The position numbers were made by a program, and so were the translations under genes. This document shows positions 397-10,563 of a stretch of 13,055 nt of DNA, piece after piece. Source of the stretch: Pedosphaera sp. (GTDB lineage Bacteria; Verrucomicrobiota; Verrucomicrobiia; Limisphaerales; SIBH01); NCBI GenBank assembly GCA_031414955.1, contig JANOQV010000244.1, positions 1 to 13,055 on the forward strand. Direction: 5' to 3'. Numbering within the stretch: position 1 is the first letter of the stretch; each line of letters opens with the position of its first letter. The notes beneath the pieces were generated by a model, which worked only from the letters and a program-made list of their open reading frames with translations, had not been told where the DNA came from and made no database searches.

Positions 397-768
397 TCAG
401 GCGAGCGTCAATCCGTGGCTTTGCATCGGGGCAAAATCCGCCGTGTTCCCGGTGGCGAGACTGACACCGCACCGCACCGCCACGGCAGCAATCTGGCAGT
501 CGGCCATGCTGCGCGAGCGGCGACCAGTGAGGTTGAACAAGTCGGCGGCCTTGCGGGCGTCGATGGCAAGGAAAGGTTCAGGCGCGGACAAAAGCAATTG
601 GGCCAGCAGCTCATCCTGCGGAGTCAACGGTCCCGAAAGAAATTCGCTCCACGCAATCGTGCAGACCGCGAAATCTTCTCCCGCCGTCAACCAGGCCAGC
701 AGTTTTCCTTCGGCGGCGGAACCGGCGACCAGGGCTTGTATGAGAAAGTTCGTGTCGAGATGAATCAT
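397..768 (-). CDS. vapC: PIN-domain ribonuclease toxin (VapC family), 123 aa
   Basis: N-terminal IHLDTNFLI, central WSEFLSG and C-terminal ADCQIAAVA...LATGNTADF give the acidic PIN catalytic pattern. Downstream of a small antitoxin-like gene. Confidence 0.9.
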   Translation of the reverse strand: MIHLDTNFLIQALVAGSAAEGKLLAWLTAGEDFAVCTIAWSEFLSGPLTPQDELLAQLLLSAPEPFLAIDARKAADLFNLTGRRSRSMADCQIAAVAVRCGVSLATGNTADFAPMQSHGLTLA

Positions 769-778
769 CGCTCGCCGA

Positions 779-1027
779 TCAACGCCGCCCCTCGCGCACG
801 GACGACTGCCAGGCCGCCGCTTTTTCCGGCGTGAGTTGCAAACGGCTCTGCAACTGTTTGAACGCCTGCAAACGATCCGGGTTCTGCGCGGCGACCGGGA
901 CGGACTCCGCCTGGGTCACAGCGCGCCGCACCGCTTCCTCTTTGGACACGCCCCACGCGCGCGCCAGTTGCTCCACCACGGCCAGCGTGGAAGGGTCGAG
1001 CGAAACGCTGCTGCCATTGCCATTCAT
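779..1027 (-). CDS. Putative antitoxin, ribbon-helix-helix/CopG-like (82 aa)
   Basis: SVSLDPSTLAVVEQLARAWGVSKEEAVRRAV fits the RHH pattern. Stop is 10 nt upstream of the PIN gene start. Confidence 0.8.
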   Translation of the reverse strand: MNGNGSSVSLDPSTLAVVEQLARAWGVSKEEAVRRAVTQAESVPVAAQNPDRLQAFKQLQSRLQLTPEKAAAWQSSVREGRR

Positions 1028-1033
1028 GCCGGA

Positions 1034-1063
1034 ACCGTATCACCGCCGCCCGCTGACGGGCAA
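1034..1063 (-). promoter_or_regulatory. Putative sigma70 promoter for antitoxin-vapC (leaderless spacing)
   Basis: Minus strand TTGCCC-N18-TACGGT with an extended -10 TG, then 6 nt, then ATG at 1027. Confidence 0.6.
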
Positions 1064-1107
1064 CCGCGACTTCGCGACCATATGTATCAGTTTGGAGCGC
1101 AATTTTC

Positions 1108-2106
1108 TTAATCTCCGGTATCGACCCGCTTTGGTTTCAATTTTCCAATTCGCCCTTCCGACAGAATCGTGTCGTAGCGTTGGATAAACTCCAATTGTTT
1201 GGAGAGGTCTCCAGAGTAAGATTTCGTCCACTTGTCAACAGCCTCGATGATGGCCTCGTAAAGCGCCTCGAAAGAGAACATCTTCGTGCCGCTGTCTTGG
1301 TCGATGCGAACACTCTTGGCGGTCGGATCGATGAAGAAATGGAGAGGAAGCAACTTGCCAGACAGCACACTCCGAGAGAGCGAATTGGTCATGTGCAGAA
1401 TGGCATTCCTGAATGCCCACAATTCAGATGGCGTGACGCCGACCGGGGTAAGCACAGCATGTTTGGAGAGCCACGTCTCATAATTGCCTGCGACATCTCC
1501 AAGGTCCAGATACGCTACGGTGTCAACAAAGGATACGATGAGCTTCATTGCCGATACGTAGTGTTTGTGCGCGTAAAGGAGTTTGATGGCCTCGGTAAAG
1601 TCATCCCCGAGTAGATCATGCACATTCAAGCCTGAAGGCGTGACGTACGCAGCCAGCCAATCGGTCCGCTTCACGATCCCGTCGAATTCCTCTGAGAGCG
1701 TGGCTGGGCAGGTCGTAGGATCTACATGACTGAGGAGATCGATTCGTGGTTTTCCGTCCACAATCGGCGTGATGCAGACGAGCGGCCTCGCAGGTGCCTT
1801 GAGATCCTGAAGCGGGACTTCAAAAAGCCAGATAGCCTTTCCAGTTCTCGCAAGATACGAGAACTCTTCAAGCGACAACCCTTGCTCGGCATCAATTCCG
1901 AGCCATGACTTGATGCTCGCGACAGGGAGCGGATAGCGAACCGATCGGCCAGCATCGGCACCCGCTCGACTCTGGAGGAATGCCGCGATCTCATGTTCAT
2001 CGCCGCCACGATCATACGCGACAGCACCGAGGCTCTTGATGACGTCGCTTTCCACATAGAGAAAAAGGTTTGCGACCGTTTCTGTGGAGAGCGCTTGTTT
2101 AGGCAT
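1108..2106 (-). CDS. Hypothetical protein (about 332 aa) with C-terminal HEPN-like domain
   Basis: Long ORF, visibly more AT-rich than the flanks. The ATG at 2106 overlaps the Mrr stop (ATGCCTAA); alternative ATG at 2115. Helical C-half has SAMKLIVSFVDTVAYL...YETWL...ELWAFRNAILH (R-x4-H encoded at 1393-1410). Confidence 0.75.
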   Translation of the reverse strand: MPKQALSTETVANLFLYVESDVIKSLGAVAYDRGGDEHEIAAFLQSRAGADAGRSVRYPLPVASIKSWLGIDAEQGLSLEEFSYLARTGKAIWLFEVPLQDLKAPARPLVCITPIVDGKPRIDLLSHVDPTTCPATLSEEFDGIVKRTDWLAAYVTPSGLNVHDLLGDDFTEAIKLLYAHKHYVSAMKLIVSFVDTVAYLDLGDVAGNYETWLSKHAVLTPVGVTPSELWAFRNAILHMTNSLSRSVLSGKLLPLHFFIDPTAKSVRIDQDSGTKMFSFEALYEAIIEAVDKWTKSYSGDLSKQLEFIQRYDTILSEGRIGKLKPKRVDTGD

Positions 2107-2875
2107 CTGATTCATTGTCGAAGAGCTCGAATTTGCTGATGCCGTGCTGTGATGCAAGACGCGTTACCTCGTCTCGGCCCTCGATCACAATAACGCGCGC
2201 CTCTTGTGCTTCTCGACGTTGCTCGCCGGTAAGTTTGCCAGTTGTGACGAAAACAGCCGCGTCGAGCCGCCGTGAGAAGCAGCCGGCAAGGAACTTCAGC
2301 CATTCGCGTTCTGTGGGCGCGTTGTTCGGGCTGTGGAACTTTACTTGAACACCGATGCTGCTCGGCTCCCCACGGGCGTCGCCAAGCCGGTTCCCTACGA
2401 AGTCCACGCCGCGCTCACGTCGCTTGTCGCGGCCTTGGTGGTACCAAGCGTAGTTGGGATACGCCGCTCTCAAGACACGGATGAAATACTGCTCGAATGC
2501 ATCGCCGCGTGCCGTCTCCGACGGCACGCTTTGCTCGTTTCCAGTGTCAACGTTGATGGTGGTTTCGGCGGGGTCTGTGCTGGCGGCAAGGAACTCCCGT
2601 CCCTGCGATGTGAGTCGCCATCCTGGCGACTCCTTATCGTATGGATGGAGATAGCCTGCCTCAACTGCAACCTTGTTGACAAAGAATCGAAGGCTCGCTC
2701 TTCCCGGCTCAGAGAGAGTGAATCCCTTTAGTTTGAGAACTGCATCCACTGCGTTGTAGATGTCGCTCATTTGGGCGACACCACCTCGCTCCGCAATCGC
2801 GCCGAGCGCGATGCGAACTTGATCGTCGCCGGATAGTCCGGCGTCGGTGCCTTTGACTGGCTGGAGGGTGGCCAT
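2099..2875 (-). CDS. mrr: Mrr-family (type IV-like) restriction endonuclease, winged-helix N-terminus + Mrr_cat domain (258 aa)
   Basis: The N-domain ends in WRLTSQGREFL (Mrr_N-like). The C-domain has FEQYF...GVDFVG...VQVK...AVFVTTGKLT...A..EA...IEG, the D-(Q)xK Mrr catalytic pattern. Start placed at ATG 2875 from the upstream promoter. Confidence 0.85.
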   Translation of the reverse strand: MATLQPVKGTDAGLSGDDQVRIALGAIAERGGVAQMSDIYNAVDAVLKLKGFTLSEPGRASLRFFVNKVAVEAGYLHPYDKESPGWRLTSQGREFLAASTDPAETTINVDTGNEQSVPSETARGDAFEQYFIRVLRAAYPNYAWYHQGRDKRRERGVDFVGNRLGDARGEPSSIGVQVKFHSPNNAPTEREWLKFLAGCFSRRLDAAVFVTTGKLTGEQRREAQEARVIVIEGRDEVTRLASQHGISKFELFDNESDA

Positions 2876-2882
2876 TTGCGGG

Positions 2883-2910
2883 ATTGTAAACAGGGAACAC
2901 GGACTGTCGA
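2883..2910 (-). promoter_or_regulatory. Putative sigma70 promoter for mrr (leaderless spacing)
   Basis: Minus strand TCGACA-N16-TACAAT, then 7 nt, then ATG at 2875. Confidence 0.6.
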
Positions 2911-2936
2911 GCAAGCCTTGCTAACAGGTCGCGTAG

Positions 2937-3052
2937 TTCACGCCGAATAATCCAGATAGACCGTCTTGATGCGCGTGTAGAAATCAATCGCGCCTGCGCC
3001 TTGTTCCTTGAAGGAGTCGGTGCTGCTTTTCTTCACGCCGCCGAACGGGGCC
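2937..3052 (-). repeat. Direct repeat copy 1: orphan duplicate of the ALDH 3' end (116 bp)
   Basis: Matches 4774-4889 with 4 mismatches (2947, 2962, 2974, 2995). Encodes the identical peptide APFGGVKKSSTDSFKEQGAGAIDFYTRIKTVYLDYSA*. Confidence 0.97.
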
Positions 3053-3075
3053 GTTTCGAGTGTCGCGGGTTTCAT
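2938..3075 (-). pseudogene. Chimeric 45-codon ORF: MKPATLET fused in frame to the ALDH C-terminal 37 aa
   Basis: ATG at 3075 lies 2 nt after the HNH stop and is in frame with the duplicated ALDH tail. Confidence 0.65.
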
Positions 3076-3077
3076 CG

Positions 3078-3479
3078 TCAGTCCCATTCGCCCAACTCGA
3101 TCAAGATGGCACGCAACTCCACACGGTCGTCGGCATTCATTTGCAATACCCAGGCGGTGGTGCGGCCCACGTCCGTCAGCCCGACGATGCGGCTGCGGTC
3201 GGGTTTGAAGTGTTCGCGCCATCGGTCGTGGCGCGGGTCAAAGAGCCGGACGATTTTGTTCGTGTCGGGATCGCGTCCGGTCAGGTTTGCGCCCTTGTGC
3301 AGATTGCACTGGTGACAGGCGAGGGCCAGATTTTCGAGCGCGTCCGCACCGCCATGTTTGCGCGGGTTGATGTGCTCGACGTGGAAAGGATGTGAGTCGT
3401 CGTGTTCCTGCCGGAGCCGGCAATACTCACAACGATTCCCGGCGCGCTGCCGCACTTGCTTGCGGAGAGCCGGGCGCAT
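3078..3479 (-). CDS. HNH endonuclease (133 aa)
   Basis: CEYC...HVEHINPRKHGG...ENLALACHQCNLHKG: zinc-binding CxxC pairs plus the HNH motif. Confidence 0.93.
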   Translation of the reverse strand: MRPALRKQVRQRAGNRCEYCRLRQEHDDSHPFHVEHINPRKHGGADALENLALACHQCNLHKGANLTGRDPDTNKIVRLFDPRHDRWREHFKPDRSRIVGLTDVGRTTAWVLQMNADDRVELRAILIELGEWD

Positions 3480-3748
3480 CAGGGAGCGGCGTGTTGCCTG
3501 AGATACAAACGGGCTTTGGCCTTGAGGATGGCGACGAATTTTGAGACGCGGACACAGGTTTCGTACTCACGTTGTTCCGCTGCGGTCAGCGCGCCTTCGT
3601 TGCATTTGTCAGCCAGCACCGACACGCGTTTCGCCGCGACTGGATCAGGCTTCATGGCAACAAGGGCCTTGGCACTGGCTGGGTTGAGCGAACGGCTGAC
3701 CGGCTCCAGCAATCGCCCCAAGATGTTCACGGACGGCTCGCGTTTCAT
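3479..3748 (-). CDS. Small helical protein (89 aa), putative antitoxin/partner of the HNH nuclease
   Basis: TGATG 1-nt overlap with the HNH start. ATG at 3748 follows a promoter. Amphipathic helical sequence (LADKCNEGALTAAEQREYE...ILKAKAR). Confidence 0.8.
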   Translation of the reverse strand: MKREPSVNILGRLLEPVSRSLNPASAKALVAMKPDPVAAKRVSVLADKCNEGALTAAEQREYETCVRVSKFVAILKAKARLYLRQHAAP

Positions 3749-3754
3749 GGCGAA

Positions 3755-3783
3755 AGCGTAGCCGGGCACCTGTCGCCGCGCAA
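3755..3783 (-). promoter_or_regulatory. Putative sigma70 promoter for the partner-HNH operon (leaderless spacing)
   Basis: Minus strand TTGCGC-N17-TACGCT, then 6 nt, then ATG at 3748. Confidence 0.65.
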
Positions 3784-3800
3784 CGCCCGTTCATGTGAAA

Positions 3801-3940
3801 GGTGGGGCGCGTCGCTCCGCGCGCGCCGCCGCCGCGAGAAGGTCGTGCGGAAATCCAGCAACACGGTCGGGGCGAGACGTGAACACCCTCGCGTCCCATC
3901 TCGCCGTACCCCGGCGCGCGCGGAGCGCCGACGCCCTACC
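3801..3940. repeat. REP-like inverted repeat doublet with a nested inner palindrome
   Basis: 3801-3828 ggtggggcgcgtcgctccgcgcgcgccg versus the reverse complement of 3912-3940, ggtagggcgtcggcgctccgcgcgcgccg. Inner pair ggcgaga (3871-3877) / tctcgcc (3899-3905). Confidence 0.8.
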
Positions 3941-3988
3941 AGCAACGGTGGAATAGAGCATGGCCTTCTGGAGACCGCGCCCCATTGC

Positions 3989-4016
3989 TTGCCATCGAAC
4001 ATCTGGCGGATAGCAT
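3989..4016 (+). promoter_or_regulatory. Putative sigma70 promoter for the PIN toxin-antitoxin pair (leaderless spacing)
   Basis: TTGCCA-N16-TAGCAT, then 6 nt, then GTG at 4023. Confidence 0.65.
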
Positions 4017-4022
4017 CGCGGC

Positions 4023-4439
4023 GTGCGGGTGGTCATCGACACGAACGTGCTTTTGTCCGCGCTCCGTTCCCAGCGCGGTGCGGCTTTTCGTCTGGTGGAG
4101 AAGCTGGGTTCGCCGCAATTCCAGCCCGTCGTTTCAACGCCGCTTTGCCTGGAGTACGAGGACGTGTTGCGCCGTCCCGGCCTGCTGCCCAGGCTCTCGG
4201 CCCAGGACATCGACGACTTTCTGGATTACTTCCTCTCCGTAAGCGTGGAATGCCCAATTTATTTTCTGTGGCGTCCGCAACTGCCCGACGCGAAGGATGA
4301 CCTGTTGCTGGAACTGGCCCTGGCGGGCGACGCGGCCTTCATCATCACTTTCAACGGGCGGGATTTTCGCGGCGTGGACAAGTTCGGAATTCGAGCGGTG
4401 ACACCGGCTGAATTCCTGCGTATCTTGGCGGCGTCATGA
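4023..4439 (+). CDS. PIN-family putative toxin (PIN_3-like), 138 aa
   Basis: MRVVIDTNVLLSAL...EYEDVL...PDAKDDLLLELALAGDAAFIITFNGRDF...TPAEFL: typical PIN acidic residues. Confidence 0.92.
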   Translation: MRVVIDTNVLLSALRSQRGAAFRLVEKLGSPQFQPVVSTPLCLEYEDVLRRPGLLPRLSAQDIDDFLDYFLSVSVECPIYFLWRPQLPDAKDDLLLELALAGDAAFIITFNGRDFRGVDKFGIRAVTPAEFLRILAAS

Positions 4440-4675
4440 GCACGTTGAACGTCACGATTCCAGAATCGCTCCGCCGCCGCGCGCAAACGCTGGCGCAGGA
4501 CGACGGTGTTTCCATCGACCAGTTCATCGCCACGGCCCTGGCGGAAAAAGTCGCGGTGCTGGACGCAGACAGCTACATCCGCCAGCGCGCCGCGCGCGGG
4601 AGCCGCGAAAAATTCGAGCGCGTCCTGGCGAAAGTCCCCGACGTGGAGCCGGAGCCGCACGACCGGCTGCCTTGA
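4436..4675 (+). CDS. Antitoxin, RHH/HicB-C-like (79 aa)
   Basis: MSTLNVTIPESLRRRAQTLAQDDGVSIDQFIATALAEK fits the RHH pattern. ATGA overlap with the toxin stop. Confidence 0.88.
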   Translation: MSTLNVTIPESLRRRAQTLAQDDGVSIDQFIATALAEKVAVLDADSYIRQRAARGSREKFERVLAKVPDVEPEPHDRLP

Positions 4676-4704
4676 CCACGAAGTCGGACGCGTTGGTCTT
4701 CTAC

Positions 4705-4771
4705 GGAGCGCCGAGCATGGCTCGGCTCGAACACAAACATTCAGCCCAAGCCGAGCGATGCTCGGCGCTCC
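4705..4771. repeat. REP-like inverted doublet (GGAG-headed) between convergent genes; possible bidirectional terminator/stabiliser
   Basis: 4705-4727 ggagcgccgagcatggctcggct versus the reverse complement of 4749-4771, ggagcgccgagcatcgctcggct (22/23). Each arm is itself palindromic (gccgagc-N3-gctcggc). Confidence 0.85.
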
Positions 4772-4773
4772 TC

Positions 4774-4889
4774 TTCACGCCGAGTAATCCAGATAGACGG
4801 TCTTGATGCGGGTGTAGAAATCAATCGCGCCCGCGCCTTGTTCCTTGAAGGAGTCGGTGCTGCTTTTCTTCACGCCGCCGAACGGGGCC
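4774..4889 (-). repeat. Direct repeat copy 2: 3' end of the intact ALDH gene
   Basis: 112/116 identical to 2937-3052. Confidence 0.97.
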
Positions 4890-6232
4890 TGGAGCGCGAG
4901 GCCGGTGGAGATTTGATTGATCTTCACCACGCCGGCCTGGATGCGCTCGGAGTAGAGCATCGCCTTCTTGAGGTCGCGCGTGACGATGGACGCGGAGAGG
5001 CCGACATCGACGCCGTTGGCCACGGCGATGGCCTCGTCGAAATTCTCCACGGCGATGATGGCGATGACGGGGCCAAAGACTTCCTCGCGCGCGATGCGCA
5101 TCTGCGGCGTGACGCCGGTGATGATGGTCGGCTGCATGAAGAAGCCGTGCGCGAGTTCGCCGTCGCTCAGGCGCGCGCCGCCATAGGCCACCGTGCCGCC
5201 CTCGTTCTTCGCGATTTCGATGTAGTCGAAGTTGCCCTTGAACTCCTGCTCGTTGACCGCCGGCCCCATCGTCACGCCCGGCTTCAAGCCGTTGCCGACG
5301 ACGATGGCCTTGGCTTTCTCGATCAGCTTCTCGGTGAACTGCGCCGCCACTGACTTCTCGACAATGACGCGGCTGGTGGCGGTGCAAGCCTGGCCGGTCA
5401 GCCCGAAGCCCGCGATGGCGACGAGGCGCGCAGCGAGATCGAGGTCGGCATCGGCGAGGACGATGGTCGGGTTCTTGCCGCCCATTTCCATCTGCGCGCG
5501 GGCCATGCGCTGGGCGAGCTGCTGATAGACCTGCGCGCCGACCTTGAGCGATCCGGTGAAGGAGAGCGCGGCGACGTTGGCGTTCGTGGCGAGTTCACCG
5601 CCGACGGCGCGGCCATCGCCAGTCACGACGTTGAGCACGCCCTTGGGCAGGCCGGCTTCGGCGAGAACCTTCGCCAGTTCAATCGACATGGCTGGTGCTT
5701 GCGACGCGGGCTTGAGCACCACGGCATTTCCGCTGACCAGCGCGGGCGCGAGCTTCCACGCCGGGATGGCAATGGGGAAATTCCACGGCGTGATGAGGCC
5801 GACGACGCCGAGCGGTTCACGGCGCGTGAACAAAAGATTCTGCGGCAGGTCGTGTGGAATAGTCTGGCCACCGATGGTGTAGCTGAGTCCGCCGAAGAAG
5901 CGGAAGATGTCGCAGGCGCGCTGCACTTCGCCGGTCGCTTCGGCGAATGTCTTGCCTTCCTCGCGCGTGAGGAGTTCGGCGAGTTCGGCCTTCTTTGTTT
6001 CGAGCAGCTGCGACGCTTTGCTCAACACCCTGCCGCGCGCCACTGGCGTCATCGCTGCCCAACCGGCGGACGCCGACTGTGCGGCAGCGACCGCAGCGGC
6101 GGCCTCAGCTTGGCCGCTCTGCTGATAGCTGGCGACCGCTTCGCGCGTGTCCGCCGGGTTCTGGTTCTGGTAGGTCGTGCCCGAGGCGGCTGAAACCCAT
6201 TCGCCGCCGATAAAATTTTGGTAAGTGCGCAT
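4775..6232 (-). CDS. NAD(P)-dependent aldehyde dehydrogenase (possibly alpha-ketoglutaric semialdehyde dehydrogenase-like), 485 aa
   Basis: ITPWNFP, LKPAS, SFTGS, catalytic Glu in EMGGKNP, catalytic Cys in GQACTA, EEVFGPV, PFGGVKKS. Start at ATG 6232 (MRTYQNFIGGEW). Confidence 0.96.
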   Translation of the reverse strand: MRTYQNFIGGEWVSAASGTTYQNQNPADTREAVASYQQSGQAEAAAAVAAAQSASAGWAAMTPVARGRVLSKASQLLETKKAELAELLTREEGKTFAEATGEVQRACDIFRFFGGLSYTIGGQTIPHDLPQNLLFTRREPLGVVGLITPWNFPIAIPAWKLAPALVSGNAVVLKPASQAPAMSIELAKVLAEAGLPKGVLNVVTGDGRAVGGELATNANVAALSFTGSLKVGAQVYQQLAQRMARAQMEMGGKNPTIVLADADLDLAARLVAIAGFGLTGQACTATSRVIVEKSVAAQFTEKLIEKAKAIVVGNGLKPGVTMGPAVNEQEFKGNFDYIEIAKNEGGTVAYGGARLSDGELAHGFFMQPTIITGVTPQMRIAREEVFGPVIAIIAVENFDEAIAVANGVDVGLSASIVTRDLKKAMLYSERIQAGVVKINQISTGLALQAPFGGVKKSSTDSFKEQGAGAIDFYTRIKTVYLDYSA

Positions 6233-9609: not shown

Positions 9610-9640
9610 CAGTTGAGGCGACGAAGCCTTTTATTCAAAA

Positions 9641-9729
9641 CACCAAGCACCAAGCACCAAGCACCAACCAACGGTCGTGGTTGCGATTTGGAGCTGGGTG
9701 TTTCTCTGGAGCTTGGTGCTTGGAGCTTT
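9641..9729. repeat. Heptamer-based inverted repeat element: (CACCAAG)n ... (CTTGGWG)n
   Basis: caccaag x3 + caccaac at 9641-9668 pairs with ...ctggagcttggtgcttggagctt ending near 9729. Confidence 0.85.
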
Positions 9730-9755: not shown

Positions 9756-10499
9756 ATGTCCGCCCCGTTGTTGAAACTTGAGAACGTCAGCAAGAGCTAC
9801 CGCGCCGCCGAAGGCAGCGCGCCGGTCACCGTTCTGCGCGATGTCTCGCTTACCATCGAAGCTGGCGAATCGCTTTCCATCGTCGGACCGAGCGGCTGCG
9901 GCAAGAGCACCTTGCTCAATATCATTGGCACGCTCGACCACGCCGACTCCGGCCGCGTGTGGTTCGGCGACAAGGATCTCAGCGCGCAGAATGAGCAATC
10001 GCTCGCCACGATCCGGAACCGCGAGATCGGCTTCATCTTCCAGGCGCACCATCTGCTCCCGCATTGCACCGTCTGGGAGAACATTCTGGTGCCGACGCTG
10101 GCGGAAAAAAACTCTCCGACAGCCAACGGTGCCGAGCAACGCGCCGAGCGCCTGCTCAAACGCGTGGGCCTCAGCGACCGCATTCATCACCGCCCCGGCC
10201 AACTCTCCGGCGGTGAACGCCAGCGGGTGGCCGTGGTGCGCGCGCTCATCAATCAGCCCAAGCTCCTGCTCGCCGACGAGCCGACTGGTTCCCTCGACCG
10301 CGCTTCCGCCGATGAACTGGCCAAGCTGCTCGGCGAATTGAACCGCGAGGAGAACGTCACGCTGATCGTCGTCACCCACGCGCTTGATCTGGCGCGGCAG
10401 ATGGGGCGGGTGTTTGAGATTCGGGAAGGAGCACTGGTCGAAGATCCAAGCTCCAAGATCCAAGCTCCAGAGAAGATCCAAACTGCAAACACCAAATGA
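9756..10499 (+). CDS. ABC transporter ATP-binding protein (LolD/MacB-like)
   Basis: Walker A GPSGCGKSTLL, Q-loop GFIFQ, signature LSGGERQRVAVVRAL, Walker B LLLADEPTGSLD, H-loop VVTH. Start at ATG 9756. Confidence 0.95.
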   Translation: MSAPLLKLENVSKSYRAAEGSAPVTVLRDVSLTIEAGESLSIVGPSGCGKSTLLNIIGTLDHADSGRVWFGDKDLSAQNEQSLATIRNREIGFIFQAHHLLPHCTVWENILVPTLAEKNSPTANGAEQRAERLLKRVGLSDRIHHRPGQLSGGERQRVAVVRALINQPKLLLADEPTGSLDRASADELAKLLGELNREENVTLIVVTHALDLARQMGRVFEIREGALVEDPSSKIQAPEKIQTANTK

Positions 10500-10563
10500 C
10501 GCGCTGCATTGGACATTGGATCTTGGAGCTTCTCTGGATCTTGGATCTTGGATCTTGGGTCTT
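10441..10563. repeat. Heptamer-based long inverted repeat: (ATCCAAG/CTCCAAG)n ... (CTTGGAT)n
   Basis: Left arm aagatccaagctccaagatccaagctccagagaagatccaa... pairs with right arm ttggatcttggagcttctctggatcttggatcttggatcttgg. Shares ccaagctccagagaa with the 9641-9729 element. Confidence 0.88.

Follow-up and report, generated by a model that had tools for sequence, protein, structure and literature searches.

Architecture of the ALDH Locus

The stretch of DNA analyzed here, hereafter the window, is a whole contig of 13,055 nt (JANOQV010000244.1, or C244) from a Pedosphaera sp. genome (GCA_031414955.1, or G000) assembled into 313 contigs totaling 6.55 Mb. Its subject is a cassette of small genes bracketed by two copies of the 3′ end of an aldehyde dehydrogenase (ALDH) gene. 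The intact ALDH gene, encoding 485 aa, lies on the reverse strand (4775..6232). As originally predicted, its last 116 bp (4774..4889) recur in direct orientation 1837 bp away (2937..3052, reverse strand, with stop codon), and these are the only two copies in the assembly; we call the second an orphan tail. Following the ALDH stop are a 67-nt palindromic hairpin repeat (4705..4771), which occurs at ∼50 genomic places and also after the intact ALDH gene of a relative, G001; a putative antitoxin gene (4436..4675, forward strand) with weak HicB, PSK_trans_fac, and RHH-like matches; and the gene of a putative PIN_3 toxin (4023..4439, forward), which matches TIGR00305 above cut-off, is 92% identical in the same place in G001, and is preceded by a sigma-70-like consensus (3989..4016, forward) recognized by sequence match alone. 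A hairpin repeat of ∼150 nt (∼3796..3945; five genomic places) parts this pair from a second cargo unit on the reverse strand, composed of an unannotated partner gene (3479..3748; the open reading frame call reaches 3769 with a GTG start) and an HNH endonuclease gene of 133 aa (3078..3479). A 25-nt spacer (3053..3077, reverse) then leads up to the cargo–tail junction. The original prediction that only a PIN toxin–antitoxin (TA) pair, a partner–HNH pair, and repeats separate the copies agrees with the protein scan, which found no integrase or transposase among the 17 window proteins, although the “repetitive extragenic palindromic (REP) doublets” it named are the two hairpin repeats described above.

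The copies differ at four positions (2947/4784, 2962/4799, 2974/4811, and 2995/4832), and position by position all four are third-position synonymous changes (TAT/TAC, ACG/ACC twice, and GCA/GCG), as had been claimed. With 26 synonymous and 88 nonsynonymous sites, such an outcome has a chance probability of 0.003. The 57 bp nearest the junction (2996..3052) are indeed identical, but the weight once placed on this does not hold, the run length being nonsignificant (P = 0.064), and the block was dropped as a crossover signal. Two public runs from one study, X1 and X2, contain contigs that match both flanks and the cassette without differences and at similar depth. These contigs break in the 57-bp identical core, and the HNH–tail junction is covered with 30 letters on the tail side where 31 is the bridging threshold, so the junction is not strictly bridged. 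Runs X3, X4, X8, and X9, with small word shares, held other organisms and were left out of habitat and strain claims.

Copied Gene Ends Across the Genome

Using our own gene calls (4140 genes, with start positions less certain than stops), we sought partial copies of each gene within 30 kb. For 3′ ends copied downstream in the same orientation, there were 30 hits in 27 genes, whereas the control classes gave 7 hits in 5 genes (3′ ends upstream), 6 in 5 (5′ ends upstream), 8 in 8 (5′ ends downstream), and 5 hits (opposite strand); relaxing the 5′ control brought in 5 more upstream hits, compared with 9 downstream 3′-near hits. After the removal of seven hits (two paralog or in-gene copies, three repeat- or transposase-like, and two weak ones at 80–82%), 23 curated orphan 3′ tails remained at 20 genes, with lengths of 40–530 nt and gaps of 177–9918 nt. 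Other 3′-end duplications flanking TA genes, which the original prediction had led us to expect, are thus found across the genome. When pooled and compared with the intact genes, the 23 tails differ at 206 of 876 synonymous and 69 of 2715 nonsynonymous sites, a nonsynonymous-to-synonymous ratio (pN/pS) of 0.11. The copies have therefore diverged mostly as working alleles, which supports the view that both ALDH copies behave as former working gene ends and upholds the earlier proposal that both evolved under selection.

The host genes are ordinary. Their domains comprise LepA_C, carboxylase, semialdehyde dehydrogenase, SIS, LytB, class II tRNA synthetase, BATS, M16, AcrB, DUF1501, and others, and they include lepA, pyruvate carboxylase, ispH, and a thrS-like gene; we take the labels thrS, lysS, lepB, folB, glmS, and asd from domains and the look of the sequences. 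The cargo at the 20 loci is mostly TA or methylase genes (PemK, ParE, PIN, HicAB, RelE-HTH, SocA, and DNA methylases), while two longer inserts carry transport and regulatory genes. Of 124 proteins listed for hosts and cargo, 90 were scanned, and no integrase or transposase was among them. The genome has eight tyrosine-recombinase matches, all on other contigs, with serine recombinases outside the scope of the genome-wide search. By eye, the 23 tails share no junction motif, no motif-finder having been run.

On one whole contig of G000 (C83, L067), convergent lysS-like and thrS-like genes enclose an array with orphan tails of both, TA pairs, and a methylase in between, which we interpret as growth from both sides. 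At the asd-like gene (L058:1711-6139), a 303-nt tail parts two diverged copies of one large gene of unknown function, as if an incoming allele had displaced the resident copy. A blind sample of 1.16 Mb from seven relatives (698 genes, L183 left out) gave three downstream 3′ hits, two of them orphan and none in G007 or G009 (242 genes), which are too few to decide polarity in relatives from this sample.

The ALDH Locus in Relatives

In G013, G016, G034, and contigs L075, L076, and L080, a FAH-family gene directly follows ALDH. Since the FAH gene of G000 lies inside another contig (C12), the ancestral ALDH–FAH link is broken in this genome. In close relatives, the cargo behind the ALDH stop consists of ApeA-HEPN, addiction modules, HNH pairs, and hypothetical genes; it varies as had been anticipated, and strains with zero, one, and two orphan ALDH tails exist. 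A search scoring two candidates per genome matched the ALDH end in 136 of 301 genomes of the order, with tail-only matches confined to G000, G001, and G007. The G001 tail (119 nt) has one deletion and one amino acid change, while that of G007 (∼105–113 nt), a genome in which the intact ALDH gene was not found, is decayed. Two further tails (114 and 111 nt by BLAST) lie in L071, one of nine distinct metagenome contigs.

L071 also carries the partner–HNH–spacer–tail unit of the window, there directly behind ALDH. Comparison of the two shows differences at 73 of 224 third positions in the partner and HNH genes and at 10 of 23 aligned sites in the spacer (27 nt in L071, 57% alike), but at only 3 of 114 sites in the orphan tails. 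In a minor X2 contig, too, the ALDH stop and the partner gene are joined, across 36 bases. A search for a donor continuation behind the HNH gene matched 10 of 251 genomes, none into the spacer. The earlier idea of a housekeeping gene end acting as a growth point for cassettes keeps its array behind the stop, but “housekeeping” is loose for ALDH because the enzyme is catabolic and the query matches in 136 of 301 genomes. Its best NCBIfam matches are 2,5-dioxovalerate and ketoglutarate-semialdehyde dehydrogenase, both below cut-offs.

Other Host Genes Across the Order

Tails of lepA measuring 61, 61, 58, 52, and 41 nt are present in 5 of the 13 family genomes having lepA; among 90 of 101 order genomes, they occur only in G000 and G007. 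One lepA cargo–tail unit, shared by G004, G007, and G008, precedes three unrelated downstream sequences. G009 has an empty lepA site, and the sequence downstream of it matches that after the G007 orphan (427/459, 93%). Between G007 and G009, the pyc orphans show 5 differences in 114 sites, without amino acid change. Among the five relatives tested, tails recur at thrS-like, carboxylase, M16, and BATS genes.

The thrS-like gene gave more than one match in 20 of 95 order genomes. Of these, 11 have same-strand fragments downstream of the intact end on one contig, 6 have fragments on separate contigs, and 3 were not checked; the 11 include the two-contig genome G063. The fragments start at many breakpoints, from 34 to >264 codons. 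In the thrS comparison, the 5′ bins cannot be relied on, since its open frames ran from one stop to the next. Tails of thrS stack behind one another in many families of the order, with cargo that is TA and defence-like and includes some stress and membrane genes. Among 64 proteins scanned (49 of 73 thrS-locus candidates and 15 from other loci), there was no integrase and one insertion sequence (IS)-type transposase. No thrS fragment was found in 120 genomes outside the order, where the query is only 35–66% identical and short tails would therefore be missed. The DUF1501 gene-end search was swamped by paralogs. The layout, its polarity, its recurrence, and the synonymous bias are real, the layout recurs at many ordinary genes in this bacterium and its relatives, and the cargo scanned is free of integrases.

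ThrS-like ends of six families cluster together on branches 0.02–0.08 long (weak support), which speaks for the route of insertion proposed below, and the last 200 codons are nearly identical across six families in L201, L202, L207, L204, L206, L208, and L067. Only 381–438 codons make up the thrS-like open frames of G018, G073, and G088, which may represent a shorter version lacking the N-terminal part. In G042:C42 (L122 and L137), a pair of thrS-like ends ∼18 kb apart point toward each other, with several fragments and cargo in between. Three families (L125, L126, and L127) share an AAA ATPase–DUF3226 pair as thrS cargo, followed by tails of 122, 45, and 116 codons.

A Proposed Route of Insertion and Its Alternatives

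These sequences are best read, in our estimate with a probability of roughly 55%, as an integrase-free cassette array behind the ALDH stop, in which the orphan tail is likely the cell's former gene end, displaced by a relative's DNA and likely reused as a second homology arm. In a first step, a linear donor fragment would pair via RecA with several hundred 3′ ALDH bases, and its nonhomologous end would be joined illegitimately inside the recipient gene, a rare event. The donor end would then complete the gene, and the old end would be pushed behind the cargo; on comparison with relatives, 4774..4889 would be the incoming allele and 2937..3052 the displaced resident end. In a second step, a gene–cargo–tail fragment would spread to relatives by homologous recombination with the tail as second arm. 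As such a fragment offers two homology arms to any relative with a similar gene end, an ordinary double crossover would insert it whatever lies downstream. Each insertion would renew the tail from the working gene end, repeated rounds would stack cassettes, and unused tails would erode. Homology-facilitated illegitimate recombination has reportedly been studied experimentally. ComEC and DprA domains are present in the genome; Ku was not found.

Of the two mechanisms originally proposed, the homology-anchored one is favored and best explains the founding junction, which would have an illegitimate joint inside the gene. A site-specific integrase acting in trans is disfavored by the spread over 20 unrelated genes, the many breakpoints at thrS, and the lack of any junction motif to the eye. 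The evidence further suggests a role as a reusable recombination arm for the tail, which was absent from that proposal. Three results point to a linear donor and a reusable tail, namely ALDH 3′ homogenization past the tail, tails kept better than neutral sequence, and resident sequence after an orphan. The first of these is a gradient: among nine cargo-bearing lineages, the ALDH synonymous difference rises from 0.12–0.15 in the last 450 nt to 0.29–0.39 beyond 750 nt, a ratio of 0.25–0.47 against a minimum of 0.68 in 32 control ortholog pairs. It is not seen against the cargo-free lineage. The 3′ 450–750 nt of ALDH are unusually similar between cargo-bearing relatives, but the gradient concerns one gene and nonindependent lineages in a group chosen partly by cargo. 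More tentatively, and with somewhat less than an even chance in our view, the order (Pedosphaerales) may run a genome-wide enzyme-free cassette system, in which a 40–600-bp copy of a gene 3′ end is a portable attachment arm and TA and defence cassettes spread among species and families and stack behind dozens of genes by host recombination alone.

A number of points weigh against this interpretation. By gene, the gradient in five hosts does not differ significantly from controls (P = 0.30), the DUF1501 host has none (ratio of 1.17), distant genomes show a mild ALDH gradient too, and recombination through two arms, ALDH and the FAH gene, would yield one as well. Inheritance followed by rearrangement and gene conversion could account for the shared cargo–tail units. 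Decayed orphans exist in G007 and G009, and no excess decay was found in the junction-proximal part of the tails (35/59 nonsynonymous and 102/188 synonymous codons in the first half; P = 0.45). The five ALDH orphans all start ∼105–119 nt from the stop, behind four different neighbors; such narrow starts would require extra cargo turnover if the tail is reused, and they also fit a joint hot spot or a site-specific enzyme. Searches of 12, 2, and 4 relatives carrying the gene revealed no tails of ispH, asd, and glmS, respectively. Sampling was one genome per species, mostly as fragmented assemblies.

The cassette might instead be excised between the two tails as a 1.8-kb circle and enter another cell's gene end by one crossover, an unlikely route although it would give the same product and recurring junctions and has been proposed for rhs tips (in the available text of PMC2935791). 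The X1 contigs covering the cassette (window 1007-4880) are deeper than the flanks (17.8 and 18.1 vs. 11.9 and 15.3; ∼1.5 times the left flank), possibly through noise, GC bias, or a subpopulation, but X2 depth is flat (7.8, 7.8, 8.4, and 10.3). The ALDH homogenization over 450–750 nt extends far past a 116-nt tail, and the first junction would be left unexplained. Tails of 40–60 nt are also short for a single crossover. Slightly less likely still, every tail could be an independent homology-facilitated illegitimate event, with joints recurring at GC-rich spots and a tail without later role. The many thrS breakpoints, the nested tails of differing length, the same ALDH start behind different cargo, and the decayed orphans would all suit it; the recurrence of cargo, spacer length, and junction in diverged lineages, with tails far better conserved than cargo, and the single lepA unit before three different downstream sequences would not.

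We consider it improbable that the tails are remnants or satellites of integrase-driven elements that replace gene 3′ ends, with the integrase lost or in trans. An anatomy like icd–e14–icdC (PMC13626634, in its available text), ALDH tail starts within ∼14 nt, and the eight tyrosine-recombinase matches speak for it, against which stand the breadth of targets and breakpoints, the lack of a shared motif by eye, and the scans of 90 and 64 proteins. Marginally more improbable is a local tandem duplication followed by deletion, with conversion by the nearby intact gene keeping the likeness. It needs no transfer, and direct repeats 0.2–10 kb apart can convert. However, a decaying duplicate should have a pN/pS near 1 rather than 0.11, the cargo is not duplicated, and orphans are no closer to their own intact gene than to the ends of other species. 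Least probable by far is a chimeric assembly of two strains. Fragmentation of the genome and an estimated contamination of 5.84% speak for it, as do the public contigs that stop one letter short of the threshold at the junction; nevertheless, those contigs match each side without differences (although the runs are probably the source study, not an independent one), the same HNH–spacer–tail joint occurs in the unrelated L071 assembly, and thrS arrays are found in a genome of two contigs.

Relation to Known Systems

In rhs/mafB C-terminal displacement (Jackson et al. 2009, PMC2935791, available text), incoming DNA displaces the old end downstream without an integrase, RecA-type recombination is proposed, and the circular intermediate is likewise proposed, not shown. 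As in rhs arrays, same-strand fragments of variable length lie downstream of an intact gene here. There, however, the repeat is the conserved core before a variable toxin tip, so that the protein end changes, whereas here an ordinary enzyme gene contributes its invariant end as the repeat, which leaves its protein unaltered, and the cargo consists of separate genes behind the stop. A polymorphic-toxin core with variable tips is not what we find, the hosts being ALDH, LepA, carboxylase, and LytB and the tails near-identical in protein. The growth of effector–immunity arrays of the type VI secretion system (T6SS) similarly uses one homologous anchor and an illegitimate joint, shifting older modules back; in the available text of that work (Kirchberger et al. 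2017, PMC5361080), it is confined to T6SS clusters, replaces the effector, and has no duplicated metabolic-gene end.

The proposed route works like rhs displacement and like icd/icdC, yet on ordinary genes and with no integrase. The Escherichia coli prophage e14 is ∼15 kb long, occupies one site, and is integrase-driven. It too separates a functional enzyme gene from a pseudogene that copies the C-terminal part of that gene (PMC13626634, available text), but the cargo here is small, spread over 20 genes with many breakpoints, and has no integrase in the scanned proteins. A duplicated target 3′ end flanks the insert in both cases; an integrase inside or beside it was not found here. As to a fixed crossover site, ALDH starts cluster at ∼105–119 nt, and thrS starts span 34 to >264 codons. 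Nor does the locus look like an integron array, since the contig has no integrase and the locus no Rfam match, although no dedicated attC model search was made.

About half of bacterial transfer hotspots are without integrase (PMC5635113, in its available text), and the locus falls in this class (PMC5635113; PMC2884548, available text). Like those hotspots (Oliveira et al. 2017), it has variable defence cargo between conserved genes (here ALDH and the FAH-family gene), hints of recombination in a flanking gene, and no mobility genes. Unlike them, as far as that text goes, it has a duplicated gene end; two flanking genes there lead to replacement rather than stacking, which does not explain array lengthening, whereas the tail here would allow a cassette to enter with a single host gene. 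Our full-text literature search, largely outside subscription papers and supplements, turned up no account of ordinary genes whose duplicated ends bracket defence cargo without an integrase. If the tail is a portable arm, the founding and growth of integrase-less defence hotspots would be explained. Orphan gene tails mark each insertion with a footprint that is dated and can be counted, and they offer an easy handle for finding new defence genes. They also yield a testable rule, by which a homologous gene end plus a short copy would suffice to insert cargo with the gene unharmed. As a caution for the order, marker genes such as thrS and lepA may have mosaic 3′ halves.

Further Features of the Window

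Behind the orphan tail lie a sigma-70-like match (2883..2910, reverse), similar to sequence after the orphan tails of G001 and G007, and what would be older array cargo, all on the reverse strand. This begins with a gene with an Mrr_cat restriction-endonuclease domain (2099..2875) and ends with an RHH antitoxin gene (779-1027) and a PIN/VapC-like toxin gene (397-768), together 397..1027. Between them, a 332-aa gene (1108..2106) has no Pfam, NCBIfam, or PADLOC match. Because an 85% homolog sits directly behind the intact ALDH in L078, this gene is also cargo of the ALDH site, and its apparent mobility there makes it a candidate defence gene.

The HNH partner (3479-3748) likewise has no Pfam, NCBIfam, or PADLOC match. 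Small unannotated genes repeatedly precede HNH genes, here as in L071:7358-7618 and L034:3893-4171, and they look like an unnamed antitoxin family. A microprotein fused from the orphan tail, with a start at 3087 or near the HNH stop, was rejected because neither the frame relative to HNH nor the start is kept in L071 or G001. The REP hairpins were rejected as junction sites, as none abuts a junction in the window. Elsewhere, an inverted repeat of a family with nine places lies at the contig end (22-170), and low-complexity inverted repeats of 7-nt units (9637-9729 and 10441-10563) flank an ABC-transporter ATPase gene, similar ones being present in G037.

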